A stretch of DNA of 64,000 nt from positions 4,004-68,003 of the forward strand of contig JBAZBR010000004.1 of the NCBI GenBank assembly GCA_041671325.1, read 5' to 3'. Both the position numbers and the translations under genes were made by a program. The notes under the pieces are model-generated. The model had not been told where the DNA came from, ran no database searches, and worked only from the letters and a program-made list of their open reading frames with translations. The DNA is from Patescibacteria group bacterium. Lineage in GTDB: Bacteria; Patescibacteriota; Patescibacteriia; PEXW01. This document shows, one piece after another, positions 1,045 to 60,027 of this stretch (positions are counted from its first letter, which is position 1; each line of letters opens with the position of its first letter).

Positions 1045-1129
1045 GCCCAGGTGGTGAAATTGGTATACACGCGAGGTTTAGGACCTCGTGCCGCAAGGCG
1101 TGGAGGTTCGAGTCCTCTCCTGGGCACCA
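1045..1129 (+). tRNA. tRNA-Leu (anticodon TAG), with encoded CCA
   Basis: Cloverleaf read by hand: acceptor GCCCAGG/CCTGGGC, D-arm GTGA...CAC, anticodon stem CGAGG/CCTCG with loop TTTAGGA (anticodon TAG). A long variable arm TGCCGCAAGGCGT and T-arm GGAGG-TTCGAGT-CCTCT follow, then discriminator A and CCA. Confidence 0.85.
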
Positions 1130-1200
1130 GCTCGTTTCGTGCTTCGACCTTCGTGAGCGCGCTTACGCTTGCTCACTCCGGACTTTGCACGAAGCCTCGC
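1130..1200 (+). ncRNA. Conserved structured element immediately 3' of a tRNA (copy 1 of 2)
   Basis: GCTCGTTTCGTGCTTC...GTGAGCGCGCTTACGCTTGCTCAC...GCACGAAGCCTCGC. The outer stem is TTCGTGC/GCACGAA and the inner stem GTGAGC/GCTCAC. About 85% of it matches the sequence following tRNA-Arg at 45404-45475. Confidence 0.4.
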
Positions 1201-1279
1201 TTTTCCTCACGAATGCGTGCTCCTCACTTCGTTCGTGTGCTCCTCATTCGTGAGGTGGATTTTATAAGCGTCCCGCTCA

Positions 1280-1306
1280 CCCCATTTCATCTTCAACGAA
1301 ATGGGG
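1280..1306 (+). terminator. Hairpin closing the tRNA-Leu locus (CCCCATTTC...GAAATGGGG)
   Basis: A perfect 9-bp stem. A second 11-bp hairpin, CCTCACGAATG...CATTCGTGAGG, lies at 1206-1256. No strong T-tract follows, so termination is uncertain. Confidence 0.3.
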
Positions 1307-1341
1307 ACCCCAAGTCTGTGACATTATCATAAAAATAATTT

Positions 1342-2483: not shown

Positions 2484-3011
2484 ATGTCCACCTCCGAAAT
2501 CCTTAATGTCATGGATGAACAGGGGAATGTCCTGCGGACGATTTCGCGTGAAGAAGCTGAAAGGGACAACCACCTGACACCCAATGCCTTGATTTTTGTT
2601 TTTACGCTCAAGGGTGAAGTCTGGATACAGAAGCGCGCTCGGACTAAAAAACACTTCCCGGGTTTGTGGGATATTTCCGCTTGTGGCGGCATTTTACACG
2701 GTGAAAAACCTGAAGCGAGCGCGCAACGGGAAATGGCTGAAGAGATGGGTTTTACTTGCGAGCTACATTTCGTTGAAGCGTTTTTGAATGAATTTCCAGG
2801 TGATGACGGTTCGACTCTCCGGCGTTTATCCCATCTTTTTGTGGGCATCAGTGATAAAATTCCGAGTATAAACGAGGAAGTTGAGGAATTCCTAGCAGTA
2901 CCCGCAGGTGAATTGGTCGAAAAAATTAAAAACAATCGCCAAGATTATGTGCCATCTTTTTTAATGGAGTTAGAAAAGGCCAGTGCGGCGTTTACGAAGC
3001 TGGCAATTTAG
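2484..3011 (+). CDS. NUDIX-fold hydrolase, IPP isomerase-like (third tandem paralog)
   Basis: WIQKRARTKKHFPGLWDISACGGILHGE...AQREMAEEMGF follows the IDI-1 pattern (W-x-S-C-x-H-x-x-x-GE). Start chosen at the ATG at 2484 (MSTSEIL), since the longer ORF from 2430 overlaps the upstream gene. Confidence 0.6.
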   Translation: MSTSEILNVMDEQGNVLRTISREEAERDNHLTPNALIFVFTLKGEVWIQKRARTKKHFPGLWDISACGGILHGEKPEASAQREMAEEMGFTCELHFVEAFLNEFPGDDGSTLRRLSHLFVGISDKIPSINEEVEEFLAVPAGELVEKIKNNRQDYVPSFLMELEKASAAFTKLAI

Positions 3012-3058
3012 TATAAAAATTAATTATTAAATTAAAAAAATTATTAACTTAAAAATAT

Positions 3059-3430
3059 ATGGGAAGTATCATTGAACTAAACGACACTCTCCAATTAACT
3101 TCAGACCAGGGTTTTCCCAAAGAACTCAATTTGGAAAAACACCTGGCGCAACCATACCAAGCGGATGATTTTAAGGATAAAATTTTTAGTTTTCATGGCA
3201 AACCAGACATTAGACAATACCATCAGCAGCCAGTGCGTAATTTTTTAGTGGAAAATCGTGATGGCAAGTGGATTTATTGGGGATTGGTACATATAGTAGA
3301 AATACGCCATGACTATTTGAAAAAAACCACCTCCGGGACCTTTAAAATTATTTACATTAATACACCGGAAGAAATGAAAATAGCGCATCATCTTATAGAT
3401 CAAAGAGATGACAAAAAGTTTTTCAAATAA
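3059..3430 (+). CDS. Hypothetical protein (123 aa)
   Basis: Clean ORF. No motif recognised. Confidence 0.4.
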   Translation: MGSIIELNDTLQLTSDQGFPKELNLEKHLAQPYQADDFKDKIFSFHGKPDIRQYHQQPVRNFLVENRDGKWIYWGLVHIVEIRHDYLKKTTSGTFKIIYINTPEEMKIAHHLIDQRDDKKFFK

Positions 3431-3528
3431 TATTGCTTACCAAGGCGTAATAATCGAAGAAAGTTTGGTAACTACGAATTACGAATCTATTACGAAAGTA
3501 CGAAATACGAATTAAGACATGAATTATT

Positions 3529-3909
3529 ATGGATTATAAAGGAGTAATAATAGAAGAGAGCTTAGAAAATGATGGGCTTTTAAAAGAAGTGAAGATTTTG
3601 AGTACAAAAGTCGAGGTGGTTACCGAAAAACATAAAACCCCTTGGATAAAACAATGGACTTTGCATACAATTGAAATTCCAGAAGCTCAGGCTGAATTGA
3701 TTGCGGATAAAATAAGCACGGCTTTAGATAAAGAACATAAGCATAGTTGGTATGTGGACTTTAAGAATGACCAGTTCCATTATATTATTTTTTCGAATAA
3801 GTTTTTCAAAGTTGAAAGGGGAAATAAGGAACAATACGCTCAAGCCACGCAATATGGTATAAGCTTAGGAATACCCGATTATCAACTAACTTTTTCGCCG
3901 GAAATTTAG
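3529..3909 (+). CDS. Hypothetical protein (126 aa)
   Basis: Clean ORF. Its N-terminal coding sequence is partly duplicated just upstream (see findings). Confidence 0.4.
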   Translation: MDYKGVIIEESLENDGLLKEVKILSTKVEVVTEKHKTPWIKQWTLHTIEIPEAQAELIADKISTALDKEHKHSWYVDFKNDQFHYIIFSNKFFKVERGNKEQYAQATQYGISLGIPDYQLTFSPEI

Positions 3910-4023
3910 GAGCGGGGCAGATAGTTGTGGTTTAAAGGTTTTGGGTATAAGCCTCCCCGCCTGCCTCCAGCTGATGCTCGGCAATGGCGGGCAGGTGTAT
4001 CGTTAGGGGGTGTGGTTTTTAAG

Positions 4024-4052
4024 TTGACAAGAACACAGGGGTTTTGTAAGCT
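4024..4052 (+). promoter_or_regulatory. Sigma70-like promoter TTGACA-17-TAAGCT
   Basis: Perfect -35 with exact 17-nt spacing, about 48 nt upstream of the GGAGG-preceded ATG at 4100. Confidence 0.5.
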
Positions 4053-6039: not shown

Positions 6040-6393
6040 TTATCCCGCGGCCTGGACCACGTTTTTGAAAACCGTGGAAAACAAAGTCCAGGAAACAATT
6101 ACCAAAAACATGCCAATGACTGCGCCGATAAGCAGTTTTCGGGAGTGCGTTTCCGAGTCTTCATTACCCCCAGCGGTAATCTTAACTATAATGCCGTAAA
6201 GGAGCATGACCGTTGAAACAACCCCGATTATGCCCAGAACCACGTTGGCAATACTGAAAAGGAAAGGCTTGATATCCAGCGTGTAAAGATTGGCTTGGGG
6301 CCCAATATTTTCCGTGGTAGTAGCCGCGACAATACGGGGCGATAAGTTGATTAATAAAGTAATTAAAAAGGGAAAGTATTTCTTTAGTTTCAT
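6040..6393 (-). CDS. VirB2/TrbC-like (type IV secretion-type) pilin family protein, divergent paralog
   Basis: Signal peptide, then two hydrophobic helices, with the AGGNED core shared with the next three genes. Confidence 0.45.
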   Translation of the reverse strand: MKLKKYFPFLITLLINLSPRIVAATTTENIGPQANLYTLDIKPFLFSIANVVLGIIGVVSTVMLLYGIIVKITAGGNEDSETHSRKLLIGAVIGMFLVIVSWTLFSTVFKNVVQAAG

Positions 6394-6459
6394 TTTTTAG
6401 ATAAAGCTTGGTTTACATAAAAAAGCCGTCAAAGTCGGTTTAGGCTTGAACAGAAAAAC

Positions 6460-6822
6460 TTAGTTAGTGACTTGGGCGGTCGTCTTTAGAACAAAGTTGA
6501 CGATTGCCCAAGAAAGCAGGACGACTATCAGGCCAACGACTGCCGAAGAGATCAGTCTTTTGGCCGTATCAGTTTTGTCCTCATTGCCGCCAGAAGTTGC
6601 CAAGGAAAAAACACCGTAAAGAATTACTACTAAGGCGATTAAACCCAATAAACCCAGAATAAAGCTAACAACATTCAAAATAGTTTGTTTCAGGTCTGTG
6701 GAAGTAAAACCCAGCGAGCCGGCAAAAGTCGTGTCAAAAGACACGGCCAAAGCCATGGCTGGCAGGGCTATAACGGTTAAGCTTATTAAGGTAGCAAAAA
6801 GGTATTTGTTAGGTTTTTTCAT
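6460..6822 (-). CDS. VirB2/TrbC-like pilin family protein (paralog 2)
   Basis: Signal peptide ending ...AMALA, then VSFDTTFAGSLGFTSTDLK, two TM helices and a GGNEDK motif. Confidence 0.5.
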   Translation of the reverse strand: MKKPNKYLFATLISLTVIALPAMALAVSFDTTFAGSLGFTSTDLKQTILNVVSFILGLLGLIALVVILYGVFSLATSGGNEDKTDTAKRLISSAVVGLIVVLLSWAIVNFVLKTTAQVTN

Positions 6823-7200
6823 TTATAATCCGCTTGGGCTCCCGGCTACTTGGTTGGCTGTTTTAAGCACAAAATTCACGATTGCCCAAGCCAGCAAGAC
6901 AATAACCAAACCAACTGAGGCTGAAGAAATTATCTGTTTGGCTTTGTCTACTTTGTCCTCATTGCCGCCTGCAGTCATCCAAATAAATCCAGCATAAAGA
7001 ATAAAGACAACGGCAATCAAGCCCAAGAGGCCTAAGACGAAGGTAATAACATTCAATACGGCCTGTTTTAAGTCTACCGAGGTAAAACCCAGCGAGCCGG
7101 CAAAAGTCGTGTCAAAAGACACGGCCATGGCAGCCATTGGCAAGGCTAGGCTAATTAATGACAAACCGAGAGCGGCAAGGTGTTTGTTAGTAAGTTTCAT
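6823..7200 (-). CDS. VirB2/TrbC-like pilin family protein (paralog 3)
   Basis: Same architecture. More than 70% identical to its neighbours in the VSFDTTFAGSLGFTS...LLAWAIVNFVLKT core. Confidence 0.5.
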   Translation of the reverse strand: MKLTNKHLAALGLSLISLALPMAAMAVSFDTTFAGSLGFTSVDLKQAVLNVITFVLGLLGLIAVVFILYAGFIWMTAGGNEDKVDKAKQIISSASVGLVIVLLAWAIVNFVLKTANQVAGSPSGL

Positions 7201-7305
7201 ATACCCTTATATTAACGCAATTTGCCGGAGAATTACAATAGCTATTACTAAAAACCCCCAGGTTTTAGCCGAAAGGGTTTTTAGTTTAATTAATAATTAT
7301 GTTAA

Positions 7306-7674
7306 TTAGGCGGTCACTTGATTGGTAGTCTTCAACACGAAGTTGACGATCGCCCAAGCCAGCAAAACCACAACTAAACCGATACAAGCTGAAGAAATGA
7401 TTTTCTTAGCTGAATCAACCTTATCTTCATTGCCACCCGCAGTCAGCCAGATAAAGCCACCGTAAAGAATCATGATAACCGCGATCAAGCCCAAGAGGCC
7501 TAATACAAAGGTAATCACGTTCAAAATCGTTGCCTTCAAATCAGTTGAAGTGAAGCCCAATGAACCGGCAAAAGTAGTATCAAAAGACACGGCTAAAGCC
7601 GCTATTGGTAAGGCCATTACACCCAGGGTTGCAGCGGTTGCAATTAAATATTTTTTGTTTAATTTCATAAACAC
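7306..7674 (-). CDS. VirB2/TrbC-like pilin family protein (paralog 4)
   Basis: Same architecture as the previous three genes. Confidence 0.5.
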   Translation of the reverse strand: MFMKLNKKYLIATAATLGVMALPIAALAVSFDTTFAGSLGFTSTDLKATILNVITFVLGLLGLIAVIMILYGGFIWLTAGGNEDKVDSAKKIISSACIGLVVVLLAWAIVNFVLKTTNQVTA

Positions 7675-7865
7675 ACCCCCTTTCCGATTTTTCGGTATAT
7701 TAGTCTAATCTAATTAAATCTTAGCTTATTTTGCTTAAAAGTCAAAGCTTTTAAACAGGTTATTGTACGCTTATTCAGAAAATAAATCAAGCCCCCAGGT
7801 TATTAGGGAAAAGTGGTAAAAAAATGAGTTTTTTGTCTTAACTTAGCTAAAAATTAGGATTTTAG

Positions 7866-8100
7866 GGTCCCCGTAAATCAGGCGCGCAAGCCCGCGAAAG
7901 CGGGATGAGCACGGATTTACGGGGAGAGGGGCACACTAATAGGGTCCCCACGAACGAGTAGCGGACCCCGCGGCCGCGGGGGAGTACGCATCTGCGGGGA
8001 GAGGGGCACTAAAAGGCTTTCTAAGAATAGGGGTCCCCATAAACGTGGCACGGAGCGGAGCGAGTACGCGTTTATGGGGAAAAGCGGCACATTTGTGGAG
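7866..8100. repeat. Three tandem ~77-88-nt hairpin units with conserved GGGTCCCC and GGGGAGAGGGGCAC flanks
   Basis: Unit stems are CCCCGTAAATC/GATTTACGGGG and CCCCATAAACG/CGTTTATGGGG; the middle unit is degenerate. The array lies in a divergent intergenic region, and the overlapping minus-strand ORF 7917-8114 looks spurious. Confidence 0.5.
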
Positions 8101-8324
8101 TCTGGAGTGGCCAAACGTTCAGTTTGGACACGAAAGGCGGAACAAATGTTGACGCGTGCGCCGTCGCGCCGTCGCGGTTTTATCGTGGATAACTCGGCCT
8201 TTTTTTGCCAAAACCTGTGTTAGCCTTAATTTAGTCAGTAAACAAACGCCATTCATTTCAATCCTGGAAAGGAGGTGAGTGGCATAACTAAAACCGTTCT
8301 TTTTAAACTGAAAGGAGAATCCAA

Positions 8325-9017
8325 ATGCAACGGATTCTTATTCTCGCCGGTTTGCTGCTCGCCTTGGTGTTGGCTGGGTGTAGTGAGCAGAGCGTCGCTC
8401 CAACTACGCAGGCCTCTGCTCAAGGTTTCTACTACGATGAAGTAGCTCAGACGTTGTTTCTGGATGGAAAAAGCATCGATCCAAGCGATGCGGCTATATG
8501 GTTGATTTCCAATCAGCCATCTAGCCAAGTTGTTCAAGAATTAGGAAAGATTCCTAATTCAATTCAAGAGCAGATTCTCAAAGCAGGAATGATCGCTATG
8601 GGGGTGAGTTCAGACACAGCAGCAGCTGTCCTAAAAGAACTATCTCTTCTGTTAGGACAAAAAGAGTCTTCCCAAGCAACTTCTGCCGCGGCTTGCCGGC
8701 AATTTATTGAATACCAGCCCTCCGCTGGTGCAACGGGCTGCAGAGGTTATTGGACGGATCCGTACTGTGATGGCGATCCTTCCGATAATGAGTACATTTT
8801 TGCATATTATCCGACCTGGTCGGATACGCCAGATGATGTGAGATGGTATACATACAATGCGTATGTGTACTATGCCTTGTGGGTGGCGTATCGTGCAAAT
8901 TTGCTTGCTCGTGATGCCTGTTCTCCGGGTGTATATCTTTGCATTGGCGATCGCGGCACCTGGCTCGCCGGCGGGCCAGTCGTTGTCAGTCTATATGTTC
9001 TTGTTGCTCATAACTGA
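8325..9017 (+). CDS. Lipoprotein (lipobox LAGC), Tyr/Trp/Cys-rich C-terminus
   Basis: MQRILILAGLLLALVLAGCSEQ signal peptide and lipobox, preceded by a GGAG RBS. Confidence 0.55.
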   Translation: MQRILILAGLLLALVLAGCSEQSVAPTTQASAQGFYYDEVAQTLFLDGKSIDPSDAAIWLISNQPSSQVVQELGKIPNSIQEQILKAGMIAMGVSSDTAAAVLKELSLLLGQKESSQATSAAACRQFIEYQPSAGATGCRGYWTDPYCDGDPSDNEYIFAYYPTWSDTPDDVRWYTYNAYVYYALWVAYRANLLARDACSPGVYLCIGDRGTWLAGGPVVVSLYVLVAHN

Positions 9018-45328: not shown

Positions 45329-45403
45329 GTCCCCATAGCTTAACGGATAAAGCGTAGGCCTCCGAAGCCTGAGATTGAGGTTCAATTCCTCATGGGGGCA
45401 CCA
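45329..45403 (+). tRNA. tRNA-Arg (anticodon CCG), with encoded CCA
   Basis: Hand-folded: acceptor GTCCCCA/TGGGGGC, D-arm GCTT-AACGGATA-AAGC, anticodon stem TAGGC/GCCTG with loop CTCCGAA (CCG), T-arm TGAGG-TTCAATT-CCTCA, then A-CCA. Confidence 0.8.
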
Positions 45404-45475
45404 GCTCGTTTCGTGCTTCACCCTGCGTGAGCGCGCTTTTCGCTTGCTCACTTCAGGTTACGCACGAAGCCTCGC
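45404..45475 (+). ncRNA. Conserved structured element immediately 3' of a tRNA (copy 2 of 2)
   Basis: GCTCGTTTCGTGCTTCACCCTGCGTGAGCGCGCTTTTCGCTTGCTCAC...GCACGAAGCCTCGC has the same nested stems as the copy at 1130-1200. A terminator-like hairpin follows at 45549-45585 (CCCCAATTTTTTATTAAAAAATTGGGG). Confidence 0.4.
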
Positions 45476-45690
45476 ATTCCCGACAAACCCGTACTCGCTC
45501 CGCTGCGTTCCTGGTTTGTCGGGTCAGGTTTCACAAACGTGTCGCTTACCCCAATTTTTTATTAAAAAATTGGGGCCCCCCGGGTTTTAGTTTGCTTTTT
45601 TATCCTTAAAGAGAGAAAATAAAAAGGCACACCCTTAAACAAATAAGGGTTTAAAGCATTACAAAATCTCAATAATTAACCAAAATAATT

Positions 45691-58673: not shown

Positions 58674-59666
58674 CTACTCGTACTTTTTTAGTACGGAATA
58701 GTATTTGTTTTTCTGGGTGTAAGTCGTGGAGAACTCAAGTAAAAGCCTGGCTTGGGATTCTGGGAACTGTTGCAGAAGTTCAATAGCCTCAGCACATAGT
58801 GCAAAAGCTTTAGTTTTGCCATAAGCTATTGCCCCAGACTGGACCATAATCCTTCTGACCGTATCAATTTCGACTGTTGATAGTTTTCTTTTACCAAAAA
58901 GTGGATGTAAGGTTTCCCAGTTTGCTTGCGGCGCTTGTTCGCGGACAAAAATAATCGGCAGGGTAGATTTCCCTTGGCGAAAATCTTCAAGCTTTTTACC
59001 AAAGTCCCAGGTATCATTGGCAATGATATGTGCCATACCGATTTTTTTGCCTATTTCGCCCAACAGAATAATTTCTGAGTCTGTGCCTTTTCCGAGAATA
59101 CCACCGATCCTCAATGCCCACTTCCAGAAATTATAACCCTCAGCTTTAAGCATGTAGTAAGCTTCATCAGTGCCATGCAGAGATAAATCTATGGCAGCAC
59201 CTTGGAGGGTATTTTCATCGAGCTGAGACATCTCCCTTAAGAAGTGTTGGAAACAATCCTGAGAAATACGGTTGCCGATATCGCAGGCCATGGTGTTAGC
59301 AATTGAGTACAGGCCGACGGCTTGGAGCAAGAGCGCGCTGTCCGCCTCTTTATCAATGACGTCGTCAAGGCAATAGTATGCCGTATCTTTTACTTCAATC
59401 GCGCCGCAAACAGGAATAATGTCATGCCAATTTTTGCCGCCGACTAATTCATAAGCCAGTCTGACCGTGGCTGGCCTTAGCTGAGGCATCCCAAGTCTAT
59501 ACCTTTGAAGCAAGCGCTCTCTGATTTCTGGGAATAGCAGGAAATGACTTCCAACAAAATTCTTGACAAAAGGATCAACTTTTTCCGCTGTCTTATGTAA
59601 ATATTCAAAGTACTGCATTCGGAGCCGGTAAGATCTCCGTTTGTTTTCGCGACCGGTTTTACCCAT
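58674..59666 (-). CDS. Trans-isoprenyl diphosphate synthase-fold (polyprenyl synthetase-like) protein
   Basis: YCLDDVIDKEAD is DDxxD-like; a second, degenerate motif is ANDTWDFG. Confidence 0.4.
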   Translation of the reverse strand: MGKTGRENKRRSYRLRMQYFEYLHKTAEKVDPFVKNFVGSHFLLFPEIRERLLQRYRLGMPQLRPATVRLAYELVGGKNWHDIIPVCGAIEVKDTAYYCLDDVIDKEADSALLLQAVGLYSIANTMACDIGNRISQDCFQHFLREMSQLDENTLQGAAIDLSLHGTDEAYYMLKAEGYNFWKWALRIGGILGKGTDSEIILLGEIGKKIGMAHIIANDTWDFGKKLEDFRQGKSTLPIIFVREQAPQANWETLHPLFGKRKLSTVEIDTVRRIMVQSGAIAYGKTKAFALCAEAIELLQQFPESQARLLLEFSTTYTQKNKYYSVLKKYE

Positions 59667-60027
59667 CGCTTTCTCCTTTATTTTTCAAACAACTTTGTGG
59701 TTTCTATTTAATAAATAAACTTACTGCCGGGGACCCGGCTTTGTCAAATAAAAATACCCGTCCTAAACAGTTATTGGAATCATTGAATAATTGATAAATT
59801 TATTCCAATCCATTGACATAACCGCTGCCCCATATTAATATGAGCCATTAATCAGCACCTTGAAAAATCGCATGCAAATACGTAGTCATAGCCAAAAGGC
59901 ACTATTAAGCCACCTCATGCTGAATTAAAAAGGGGAATGGTTTTTTCTGGCTATGACTACCAAGCTGGCAGTCCTCTAGCAGTAAACAAAAAATGGCGAA
60001 AACCTGAAACAGAAAGGAAAAAGCGCC

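Follow-up and report, generated by a model that had tools for sequence, protein, structure and literature searches.

Tandem hairpins between pilin and lipoprotein genes of a Patescibacteria group bacterium repeat the opening stem-loop of a conserved structured RNA

Results

The stretch of Patescibacteria DNA analysed here (the window, 64 kb) contains an intergenic region that lies, as the initial annotation had placed it, between a minus-strand pilin array and a plus-strand lipoprotein gene (Table 1). Four PF18895 T4SS-pilin genes make up the minus-strand array, whose edge is at position 7674, and the region itself was confirmed to be GC-rich, forming a GC island (0.53–0.60 against approximately 0.42). 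The pilin synteny is shared with the relatives L006, L007/L041, L010, L017, L035 and L039. A homologue search with the downstream lipoprotein returned only the lipoprotein itself and synteny was therefore traced via the pilin and LTD-PKD proteins; the proteins at the corresponding position in relatives have peptidase domains of the M23 or C39-like kind. Four homologous metagenomic loci were identified by DNA pattern and more via the syntenic proteins. Five pilin look-ups led to a paralogous pilin locus without the RNA, and the P0133 look-up proved to be the same organism as L007.

Table 1. Features of the main locus and of the two further loci in the window
Feature	Position	Strand	Description
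Second locus	1118..1311	-	minimal hairpin unit (1270-1311) and P1-P2 (1118-1260)
T4SS-pilin gene	7306..7674	-	first of the divergent array; PF18895
Candidate RNA promoter	7833..7860	+	TTGTCT-N16-TAGGAT, ending 4 nt upstream of the first GGG; putative, from sequence
Unit 1	7865..7934	+	intact extra P1 copy of the long type, inner CCCGC-GAAA-GCGGG tip, tail GGGGAGAGGGGCAC
Unit 2	7942..8009	+	degraded extra P1 copy
Unit 3 / P1	8030..8083	+	canonical P1: GGGG-U-CCCC, N7 stem, UGGCRCG / GAGYACG interior, GGGG; AAAA linker
P2	8084..8156	+	rod-like hairpin; opening strand is the unit-3 tail GCGGCAC, closing strand UUGACGCG; from RNAalifold and pair counts
P3	8158..8182	+	GC-rich hairpin then UUUUA; window variant of the near-invariant palindrome AGCGCCGTCGCGACGGCGCT + TGTTTT
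16-mer	8183..8198	+	invariant TCGTGGATAACTCGGC; minus strand TTATCCACG, DnaA-box-like
Extended -10-like box	8218..8226	+	TGT-TAGCCT, always 22 nt past the 16-mer; from alignments, putative promoter element
Leader hairpin	8248..8283	+	GCCAUUCA/UGAGUGGC; SD-like AAGGAGG within and beside the loop; by eye
Lipoprotein gene	8325..9017	+	signal peptide and lipobox; mature part is an orphan
Third locus	45392..45580	-	minimal hairpin unit (45539-45580) and P1-P2 (45392-45528)

Three consecutive hairpin units had been described in this region and were recovered, the third spanning 8030–8090 with its tail. They have in common the head GGGTCCCC and tails of the form GGGGA..GGCAC. The head occurs at 7865, 7942 and 8031, which are three of its five matches in the 64 kb (1.4 expected); the match at 59729–59736 was considered as a further unit and rejected, as it sits between the two boxes of a promoter-like site (TTGACA/TAAGTT). 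The tail GGGGAGAGGGGCAC is found exactly at 7921 and 7996, and as a variant with three mismatches (GGGAAAAGCGGCAC) at 8077–8090. Perfect stems had been reported for units 1 and 3, and the repeat finder returned both as perfect inverted repeats, their length being 12 bp instead of the 11 bp initially given: TCCCCGTAAATC/GATTTACGGGGA in unit 1 (7868–7879/7914–7925) and TCCCCATAAACG/CGTTTATGGGGA in unit 3 (8034–8045/8069–8080). The palindrome noted inside the loop of unit 1 is a genuine inner hairpin. We also agree that this is not a CRISPR array, the hairpins being 60–71 nt long with irregular periods (77 and 89 nt), sharing only head and tail, and having "variable" parts that are self-complementary.

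Each unit was then folded and compared with dinucleotide shuffles, a check that had been proposed with the initial annotation. Units 1 and 3 were found to be stable (-34.8 kcal/mol, z = -4.9, and -25.8 kcal/mol, z = -3.9, respectively); unit 2 on the plus strand folded no better than shuffles (z = -0.5), forming no clean hairpin and having three A·C mismatches in its stem.

The three hairpins are the repeated first stem-loop (P1) of a conserved structured RNA of Patescibacteria. They are not an array of equivalent units, as first proposed: unit 3 supplies the first of the two hairpins that form a module, P1-P2, and units 1 and 2 are supernumerary P1 copies. Nor does the feature end at 8100, since conserved structure runs on to approximately 8226 and, as a leader, to 8325. 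Both P1 and P2 are long irregular rods with conserved purine-rich internal loops of the tandem G·A type, and P2 contains two such 3x3 loops, GGA/GGA and GGA/GAA. In order to assess membership, a covariance model (R1) was built from the terminal units of eight lineages, including unit 3 of the window (78.8 bits) and leaving out units 1 and 2. Model R1 found unit 1 with 73.5 bits (E = 4e-18) and unit 2 with 33.3 bits (E = 6e-7), and model R2 scored 141 bits for 8030–8165. Unit 1 also shares approximately 90% identity with the P1 that stands last in L031 and L006, and the 5' half of unit 2 has its orthologue in the upstream unit of L031. Because both units are found by a model built without them and have orthologues in L031 and L006, they belong to the family; unit 1 is an intact and unit 2 a decaying extra P1 copy. 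Degenerate 5'-half copies in relatives resemble the debris of a duplicating repeat.

Eight metagenomic lineages of Patescibacteria were found to carry P1-P2, at 11 sites in total, and the proposed check for covariation in relatives revealed compensatory base changes across the eight. When eight sequences were folded jointly with RNAalifold, 24 of the 58 pairs had double changes. In the alignment of 11, the proportion of paired cells was 95.2% (75.6% in shuffles), 23 of 34 pairs showed double compensatory changes and the covariation score was 0.628 against 0.248 in shuffles, a value reached by 0 of 500; these shuffle statistics are inflated, as the alignment holds only 11 copies from about eight lineages, several of them closely related. 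Slid controls reached at most 47% paired. In the P1 helix, 9 of 14 pairs carried double compensatory changes and 99.4% of cells were paired in the 11 sequences; helices 2–4 showed double changes in 14 pairs, and the closing pair of P2 switches between C-G and G-C. Conservation in relatives with such changes supports the option of a small structured RNA that had been put forward initially, and is at odds with the incidental GC-rich spacer that had been its counterpart.

The same alignment points to the strand. Consensus pairs included 14 G·U and no A·C, one P2 pair being nearly always a wobble (U·G in four, G·U in three, C-G in one and unpaired in three of the 11 copies), and all 11 copies were more stable in the plus-type orientation, by 2.1–15.3 kcal/mol. 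The candidate promoter upstream of unit 1 is weak (8 of 12 matches) and is not listed by the consensus scanner. A TAnnAT/TAnnAA -10-like hexamer lies 0–4 nt upstream of GGGG in many units of relatives; the promoter upstream of the units is not conserved as a motif across relatives.

Downstream of P2, the consensus P3 consists of a GC stem of 9 bp capped by a CGCG loop (approximately -19 kcal/mol) and followed by UGUUUU, which is the predicted form of an intrinsic terminator (GC stem-loop and U-run), and a terminator scan picked up the window variant at 8163–8178. Three substitutions break the palindrome in the window and the hairpin ahead of the U-run remains (alignment A3 and folds). Two Logan contigs break at about 8165, most probably on account of the P3 sequence, which is palindromic or directly repeated, and not of dispersal. 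The 16-mer was exact or near-exact in 10 of 10 lineages, including ones without P1-P2: L010 and L017 have P3, the 16-mer, the -10 box, the leader and the gene in the absence of the module. The near-invariance of P3, which survives the loss of P1-P2, is odd for a mere terminator, and P3 may be part of the downstream promoter and not of the RNA. The leader hairpin shows a compensatory C-G to U-A change in L008. Two other pairings were rejected, namely that of 5' GGGU with ACUC of the 16-mer (suggested by RNAalifold), which shows no covariation and whose changes mostly break pairs, and a long-range GUGGAUAAC-GUUAUCCAC pairing seen in L039 and L006, where the leader is long, and missing from L017, L035 and short leaders.

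A search for further copies, likewise proposed earlier, revealed two additional P1-P2 copies within the window that had escaped the first reading, both beside tRNA genes. The second locus ends at the CCA end of a plus-strand tRNA-Leu (1045–1129; R1 E = 2e-8; R2 112 bits, E = 2e-23) and the third at the CCA end of a plus-strand tRNA-Arg (45329–45403; R1 E = 3e-8; R2 106.8 bits, E = 3e-22). Together with one in L007 they make up the tRNA-adjacent copies, none of which has a same-strand gene directly downstream. In L009 the block, with an identity of approximately 93% as estimated from the alignment, lies in an unrelated gene context. The copy density is three loci in the 64-kb window and one to two per locus in relatives, the genomes being incomplete, and a model search covering approximately 110 kb elsewhere in related genomes returned no P1-P2 copy.

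Searches against known families were then carried out. Rfam 15 in gathering mode returned only tRNA, rRNA and group I intron for the window and nine loci, and in E-value mode no match overlapped the module (7650–8350, 1000–1400 and L006/L008). BLAST against phages and plasmids gave no match to the module, and three of four scans of viral contigs were without match; the six viral-contig matches of a 17-mer had no tRNA and no model match and were put down to chance. The same holds for the only two pattern matches in a scan of species representatives, in Nocardia and Chthonomonas, where GC is high and R1 and R2 found nothing significant. No transposase-like Pfam domain or RAYT gene was present in any neighbourhood examined, and neither terminal inverted repeats nor target-site duplications were seen at the tRNA junctions.

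Several specific identities were considered and rejected. A TIGR-Tas array was discarded as no Nop domain (Pfam) was found among genes within 5–10 kb in the window and eight lineages, and the module interior (UGGCRCG ... GAGYACG) is not a pair of spacers, being conserved and paired, with one interior pair covarying from A-U to G-C. A type III toxin-antitoxin locus does not fit units that differ in length and sequence, nor a downstream product with a signal peptide and lipobox whose counterparts in relatives are M23 or C39-like. Neighbourhoods held no DEDD/IS110 recombinase gene as would be expected for an IS110/IS1111 bridge RNA, and the internal loops are just 3x3 nt. For a CsrA sponge of the CsrB/RsmZ type, GGA is frequent in the window copy but absent at the counterpart positions of L008 and L006 (alignment A3); by our own estimate the GGA count in the window copy is near compositional expectation. 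Mimicry of 23S rRNA was dismissed as well: the motifs CGACGGCG-UGUUU and GGAUAAC, reminiscent of the peptidyl-transferase region, gave only chance matches of 10–14 nt by BLAST against the 23S genes of L039, L010, L017 and L035. Lastly, the TGGCAC of the units was not part of a sigma-54 promoter, as inspection showed every copy to lack a correctly spaced -12 GC element.

Discussion

Based on these sequence comparisons, we propose, at a probability of about one half, that the array consists of tandem P1 copies of a new P1-P2 module that would act as an autonomous, protein-docking plus-strand RNA. A weak promoter immediately 5' of the first GGGG would drive transcription of P1-P2 as a small structured RNA, which at the main locus would be terminated by the P3 hairpin and U-run. 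Docking of a protein appears likelier than base-pairing with a target because the conserved sequence lies in internal loops and not in a single-stranded seed, and additional P1 copies would offer more docking sites. The lipoprotein gene would probably have its own promoter, made of the 16-mer, N22 and TGnTAGCCT block. Autonomy is supported by the tRNA-adjacent copies without a downstream gene, by the unrelated context in L009 and by L010 and L017, where P3, the 16-mer and the -10 box stand without P1-P2. Against it, the tRNA-adjacent copies have no recognisable terminator and their orientation would run antisense into the tRNA. No candidate partner protein was consistently encoded near the module in the neighbourhoods examined.

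The position of the main locus could also be read as that of a cis-regulatory leader (an attenuator, riboswitch-like element or processive antiterminator), in which transcription would start upstream of unit 1 and P1-P2, with a ligand or protein, would set stopping at P3 or read-through into the lipoprotein operon (8325 to more than 20 kb, all on the plus strand). In all eight block-bearing lineages P1-P2 shares its strand with the gene that follows and comes 1–3 nt ahead of a canonical hairpin and U-run; 8 of the 11 copies occupy the upstream, same-strand position of a riboswitch or attenuator, and the downstream gene cluster is long and co-directional. Furthermore, helices after P3 covary and are possibly mutually exclusive, and in the window the mutated P3 pairs with the closing strand of P2, so that these two exclude each other. 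However, the three remaining copies abut tRNA genes, without P3 or a same-strand gene directly downstream, and in L010 and L017 P3, leader and gene are retained without the module. Inspection of alignment A3 found no conserved anti-terminator pairing between sensor and terminator, the overlap of P3 with the P2 closing strand being confined to the window. The conserved extended -10-like box at fixed spacing between P3 and gene, and a canonical TTGACA-N17-TAGAGT between the block and the next gene in L009, also speak against a leader, which we consider somewhat unlikely. A selfish or neutral hairpin repeat of the REP/BIME or MITE kind, spreading by tandem duplication, seeding beside sequences able to form hairpins, tRNA 3' ends among them, and decaying, with any RNA effect (stabiliser or terminator) secondary, would account for three loci within 64 kb, for the same junction (...CGAAACGAGC/TGG, the slash marking the boundary) at two different tRNAs, for presence/absence polymorphism among relatives, for tandem copies with truncated 5'-half relics and for the high-identity block (an estimated 93%) in the unrelated context of L009. 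This origin is nevertheless unlikely in our view: compensatory changes keep the structure in orthologues whose flanking LTD-PKD protein is only about 50–58% identical, internal-loop sequence is conserved, the G·U bias is strand-specific, orientation is single within each array, no transposase or RAYT gene lies in any neighbourhood and there are only one to three copies per 10–64 kb, with none in the 110 kb of other related loci. More doubtful still is a novel type of portable RNA module that would work with a protein as a scaffold or by modifying the polymerase (processive antitermination), placed at the start of transcripts that cross strong structures, namely P3 before the variable-effector lipoprotein operon and the tRNA genes in antisense, its P1 number being tuned by tandem duplication.

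Readings at the level of DNA or of the minus strand fare worse. The protein-binding site array suggested in the initial annotation would be a double-stranded DNA element, or a promoter arrangement serving the divergently oriented pilin and lipoprotein operons, with GGGGTCCCC and GTGGCAC as palindromic half-sites. These near-palindromes are kept even in truncated units, and the adjacent P3 palindrome, the 16-mer and the fixed N22 spacing do resemble DNA-level elements. For the hairpins it is nonetheless very improbable, given that G·U pairs are strand-asymmetric (14 against no A·C) and that stem sequences covary freely, the N7 arms varying while complementarity is kept; copies at tRNA genes, moreover, lie outside promoter regions. 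Hardly credible is the proposal that the hairpins act on the minus strand, terminating tRNA transcripts at the two other loci and insulating the pilin operon at the main locus. Read along the tRNA strand, P2 in reverse complement does come directly after CCA, followed by UUUU at tRNA-Leu, and unit 2 folds better on the minus strand; yet the wobble count and the lower minus-strand stability of all 11 copies oppose it, the linker that would supply the U-run is of ARAG type and often not A-rich (CAGAG, UCAAG, AAUG), and nothing upstream at the main locus is there to be terminated.

Patescibacteria (CPR) are a very large and mostly uncultured branch of ultra-small bacteria with tiny genomes, and to our knowledge almost no regulatory RNAs have been described in them. 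The module is a strongly covarying RNA family without an Rfam counterpart, and its locus is conserved between type IV secretion-like pilin genes and cassette-like exported lipoproteins, some of them peptidases, which are candidate host-interaction genes of these episymbionts. If expressed, it would open a way into gene control or RNA-protein biology for organisms that are as yet beyond manipulation. It further exemplifies how an RNA domain evolves, here via tandem duplication and decay of one hairpin; were it a hairpin repeat, it would be a first REP-like family characterised in Patescibacteria.

Parallels with known systems are partial. TIGR-Tas arrays, known from CPR bacteria among others, consist of tandem stem-loop units with variable palindromic stems followed by a terminator, each unit carrying two unpaired 8–12-nt spacers flanked by box C/D motifs, and are accompanied by a Nop-domain Tas gene (PMC12045711). 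Our module likewise has tandem stem-loops of variable yet palindromic stem sequence and a predicted terminator after them, but its interior is conserved and base-paired, it has one to three units only and there is no Tas gene. In type III toxin-antitoxin systems (ToxI), near-identical tandem RNA repeats and a terminator precede a gene for a ToxN/AbiQ-type endoribonuclease. The order of tandem RNA repeats, terminator and protein gene is the same here, but the repeats are neither near-identical nor of fixed period and the downstream gene codes for a predicted exported lipoprotein.

CsrB and RsmZ are protein-sequestering small RNAs with repeated hairpins, a varying number of units and an intrinsic terminator. 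The module resembles them in its repeated hairpin units, in a copy number that varies between relatives and in the predicted terminator at its end; unlike them it has no conserved GGA in apical loops, its conserved nucleotides being in internal loops, it has no known CsrA-like partner and some of its copies are without terminator. The processive antiterminator RNAs put and EAR act near the 5' end of transcripts, and EAR has an Rfam entry. The module recalls them in its two neighbouring stem-loops, whose internal irregularities are conserved and which, near the putative 5' end of a transcript, precede a predicted terminator and a long operon, but there is no sequence or model similarity, the EAR model of Rfam gave no match and the tRNA-adjacent copies misfit. 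Like attenuating leaders and riboswitches whose expression platform is an intrinsic terminator, the module is a covarying domain directly upstream of a GC hairpin and U-run on the gene strand, with a structured leader after it; in contrast to them, it also occurs without terminator or gene (at the tRNA loci), terminator and gene occur without it, and neither an anti-terminator nor an Rfam match was found. Finally, REP/BIME and MITE-like repeats are dispersed GC-rich extragenic hairpins, and the module too is dispersed, GC-rich, extragenic, tandem, polymorphic among relatives and found near tRNA genes. It differs from them in having no RAYT or transposase, in its low copy number, in the single orientation of its arrays and in its conserved internal loops, and its structure has been kept over long divergence with strand-specific wobble pairs.

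Results

The initial annotation had described three tandem hairpin units between a minus-strand pilin array and a plus-strand lipoprotein gene. Sequence reading and a repeat finder located the units as described, and their setting was confirmed by gene calls. The motif GGGTCCCC occurs at 7865, 7942 and 8031, exact copies of GGGGAGAGGGGCAC lie at 7921 and 7996 with a diverged version at 8077, and the region is a GC island, the background GC content being 42%. The perfect stems ascribed to units 1 and 3 are indeed inverted repeats, although of 12 bp rather than 11 bp, and folding set these two units apart from shuffled controls (z = -4.9 and -3.9) but not unit 2 (z = -0.5). A fifth GGGTCCCC at 59729-59736 (minus strand), upstream of a gene at 59666, lies in the palindrome GCCGGGTCCCCGGC between TTGACA and TAAGTT and was rejected as a family unit. 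The genes around the lipoprotein gene are typical Patescibacteria neighbours, and database searches with its 230-aa product matched only the protein itself.

Scanning metagenomes with a pattern that fits each of the three units brought up four homologous loci, L006 to L009, and in these conservation extended well beyond the reported end of the array; further loci came from contigs encoding orthologues of the pilin and LTD-PKD proteins that flank it. A consensus structure was computed from an alignment of eight distinct lineages (A3), with two hairpins, P1 and P2, and a terminator-like hairpin, P3. Based on this structure, unit 3 is the P1 of the RNA and its tail is the first strand of P2. The sequence taken for an end motif opens P2, and the supposed array of three units ending at 8100 is P1 in triplicate. 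The closing pair of P2 swaps C-G for G-C among lineages, and the rod contains two symmetric purine-rich loops (3x3, tandem G·A type). Folding predicts the P3 consensus to be a canonical terminator-like hairpin, whose GC stem has 9 bp and a folding energy of about -19 kcal/mol; in the window the palindrome carries three breaking substitutions. The conserved block 8158-8226, made of palindrome, T-run, TCGTGGATAACTCGGC, 22 AT-rich nt and TGnTAGCCT, looks like promoter or operator DNA. On the minus strand the 16-mer reads TTATCCACG and agrees with the DnaA box at 8/9 positions. Two independent Logan assemblies (L004, L005) both start at window position ~8165, within the P3 repeat/palindrome, a shared break that the inverted/direct repeat probably caused during assembly.

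Features of the locus and of the further copies (window coordinates unless a locus is named)
Feature	Position	Strand	Description
T4SS-pilin genes (four)	6040-7674	minus	PF18895
Units 1, 2, 3	7865-7934, 7942-8009, 8030-8090	plus	hairpin units
P1	8030-8083	plus	GGGG-U, then CCCC + N7 paired with N7' + GGGG; conserved interior UGGCRCG / GAGYACG (A3 consensus)
Linker P1 to P2		plus	purine (A3 consensus)
P2	8084-8156	plus	long rod; opening strand formed by the tail of the unit, G[C/G]GGCAC (...GCGGCAC in unit 3), closing strand UGAC[G/C]CG (A3 consensus)
P3	8158-8182	plus	almost invariant palindrome AGCGCCGTCGCGACGGCGCT, then UGUUUU (A3 consensus)
16-mer		plus	invariant TCGTGGATAACTCGGC, directly after the P3 segment (A3)
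Spacer		plus	exactly 22 nt, AT-rich, non-conserved, between 16-mer and -10-like box
-10-like box		plus	TGnTA(G/A)(C/G)CT after the spacer; reads as extended -10 box
Leader		plus	own covarying helices, Shine-Dalgarno sequence, then lipoprotein gene
Lipoprotein gene	8325-9017	plus
Further neighbours		plus	CHAP-like protein, SSB, LTD-PKD protein, receiver domain, alpha-2-macroglobulin-like giant
P1-P2 copy	1118-1260	minus	minimal hairpin unit 1270-1311; locus 1118-1311; convergent with tRNA-Leu(tag) 1045-1129
P1-P2 copy	45392-45528	minus	minimal unit 45539-45580; locus 45392-45580; convergent with tRNA-Arg(ccg) 45329-45403
P1-P2 copy	L007 9144-9291		convergent with tRNA-Leu(tag)

The initial annotation had proposed looking for covariation across related genomes, and this was found among 11 P1-P2 copies aligned by MAFFT without a structural reference (A5), where both sides changed in 23 of 34 pairs. 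Standard pairs accounted for 95.2% of cells against 75.6 ± 1.4% when shuffled, and the covariation score was 0.628 against 0.248 in the control (attained by 0/500 shuffles), although these shuffle figures overstate significance since the sequences are akin. Kinship does not affect the many independent pair types or the slid-register control, in which moving partners by 1-3 columns left 29-47% of cells paired. The conservative consensus pairs held 14 G·U cells and no A·C cells, one P2 position was nearly always a wobble when paired (four U·G, three G·U and one C-G, with the other three of the 11 copies unpaired), and in every copy (11/11) the reverse complement folded less stably than this orientation, by 2.1-15.3 kcal/mol. 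The purine-rich loops are structurally sensible in this orientation only, given what is established about tandem sheared G·A pairs. We therefore find the plus strand, which is also that of the lipoprotein gene, to be the functional one at this locus, and a plus-strand RNA structure to be under selection. Unit 2 is an exception that, owing to three A·C mismatches, has better pairing on the minus strand, a preference that we read as decay.

Units 1 and 2 were left out of the P1 model, for which the terminal units of eight lineages served as input, among them unit 3 of the window. The model nevertheless detects them at E = 4e-18 and E = 6e-7, respectively. Unit 1 shares ~90% identity with the P1 of L031 and L006 that is terminal and linked to P2, and the 5' half of unit 2 is common to the upstream extra unit of L031. 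Both tails read GGGGCAC, a G-type tail whose partner strand in other lineages is UGACCCG; the P2 of the window closes with UGACGCG, which fits the tail of unit 3 only. Model matches, identities and tail types thus identify units 1 and 2 as supernumerary P1 copies, each duplicated with the first 7 nt of P2, and show that P1 was multiplied in tandem. Relatives lean the same way: L031 bears one extra unit, and L006, L007, L008 and L039 one to three truncated 5'-half relics each (GGGGYCCCC-N7-GTGGCACG, a T-run and often AGGAT). Upstream of its hairpin array, L031 also has a GC-rich stretch (420-640) with long palindromes (ccccgcctgcc...ggcgggcagg), unrelated to P1/P2, which may be another repeat family.

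A search for further copies, likewise proposed at the outset, yielded two in the window with the same models, one at each of its tRNA genes (2/2), and a third at tRNA-Leu of L007; no others were found in the ~234 kb searched with the models. All three terminate in ...CGAAACGAGC followed by TGG, the complement of the tRNA CCA end, and the junction CGAAACGAGC/TGG is identical at both window tRNAs and at the L007 tRNA-Leu. The tRNA-adjacent copies have no terminator, and the minimal unit before each window copy is an GGGGNCCCC hairpin. As the differences between the window tRNA-Leu copy and that of L007 are compensatory, these copies too are under structural constraint. The orthologous tRNA-Leu in five other lineages is without a P1-P2 copy. 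In relatives (L039 90-2490, L010 from 8411, L017 from 9204, L035 1-563) the locus adjoins the 23S rRNA gene, which in L039 contains a group I intron, and tRNA-Leu(tag) sits between that gene and the pilin genes; the window tRNA-Leu is flanked instead by methyltransferase and NUDIX genes.

The RNA is modular in make-up, and P1-P2 is found both with and without the P3 block. L010/L011 and L017/L018 retain P3, 16-mer, N22 spacer, -10-like box, leader and lipoprotein gene, and P1-P2 is missing, with either UGACCC or a decayed GGGCC... sequence left of it. P1-P2-P3, 16-mer and -10 box recur in L009 (2148-2350) at ~93% identity (estimated from the alignment) in an unrelated gene context, with a histidine kinase upstream and a 50-aa Cys-rich peptide and radical-SAM enzyme downstream; similarity ends directly after TAGCCTTAA. 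The latter two genes (2527-4025; peptide ..CCGGSCIGGNCK..) form a RiPP-like pair. A paralogous pilin locus in the same organisms (L012-L016, L019-L030), comprising NTP_transferase, solute-binding protein, three pilins (<=85% identical to those of the window) and DUF2079, holds no RNA copy.

Positional counterparts of the lipoprotein gene, all encoding lipoproteins, lie at L010 4125-4658, L031 1181-1663, L039 4698-5342, L041 1797-2462, L035 5260-5988 and L017 3380-4057. They share with it a similar signal peptide and lipobox (..GCSE/N..), and the mature parts are unrelated. That of L017 is an M23 peptidase and that of L035 a C39-like one, and nothing was recognised in the others. The picture is of a variable, cassette-like exported protein that follows a conserved putative promoter and leader. 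In the leader hairpin (8248-8283, arms GCCAUUCA/UGAGUGGC), an SD-like AAGGAGG occupies the 3' part of the loop and extends into the 3' arm. The real SD (8312-8317) lies ~50 nt further downstream, and L008 shows a compensatory C-G to U-A change in the hairpin. Long-leader lineages (L006, L007, L017, L035, L039) have a different, larger covarying structure, whose helices GAGGY...RCCUC and CCUCAC...GUGAGG are possibly exclusive. A PF05635 gene (23S rRNA IVP / Avd-like four-helix bundle) lies directly upstream of LTD-PKD in L035 (7466-7882) and L040 (3167-3541), with no reverse transcriptase seen; GreA occupies this position in the window.

Discussion

The conserved nucleotides lie in internal loops, with no conserved single-stranded stretch of >=6 nt, which makes a base-pairing seed unlikely and a protein-docking role for P1-P2 more likely. 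An autonomous small RNA is favoured by three copies without a cis target and by two lineages that have the gene block but not the module. Such an RNA would start from a weak promoter immediately upstream of the first GGGG (in the window TTGTCT-N16-TAGGAT, 7833-7860) and would end, at the main locus, at P3, while the lipoprotein gene would be served by its own promoter, the 16-mer/N22/TGnTAGCCT block. No promoter motif common to the copies was found on comparing the sequences upstream of the units. The nearly invariant sequence of P3 suggests a sequence-specific site of the downstream promoter, either in addition to or in place of a terminator.

The main rival is that P1-P2 could act in cis on P3 and the long plus-strand operon, as an attenuator or antiterminator, which would suit 8 of the 11 copies and the competition between the mutated P3 of the window and the P2 closing helix. 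A REP/MITE-like selfish hairpin repeat could account for the dispersal of the module, the identical tRNA junctions, the truncated relics and the L009 block, but sits poorly with long-term compensatory evolution, strand-specific wobbles, conserved loops, uniform orientation and the absence of a transposase from every neighbourhood examined. The strand and covariation data disfavour both minus-strand terminators and an array of double-stranded-DNA sites, the latter being the protein-binding option of the initial annotation.

The module has no match in Rfam 15. A CRISPR array was rejected, as before, the "variable" parts of the units being self-complementary; ToxI-type arrays, IS110 bridge RNAs and CsrB-type sponges were each rejected on one defining feature. 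TIGR-Tas stem-loop arrays, some of which come from CPR bacteria, likewise consist of tandem variable palindromic stems, but a Nop-domain Tas gene is needed with them, as are dual spacers that are unpaired and carry box C/D motifs (PMC12045711). The module has no such spacers, and no Nop domain was found among genes within 5-10 kb of it in the window and in eight lineages. Its closest counterparts in working are multi-hairpin protein-binding sRNAs and leaders with a terminator platform, although it is a member of neither family. The small structured RNA among the options first offered is supported by 11 copies of a conserved, covarying RNA, which is a real and previously uncatalogued structured-RNA family, so far from only one Patescibacteria clade. 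Structured non-coding RNAs and hairpin modules are a known kind in bacteria, while the family itself, the tandem behaviour of P1 and the placement against tRNA CCA ends are new.
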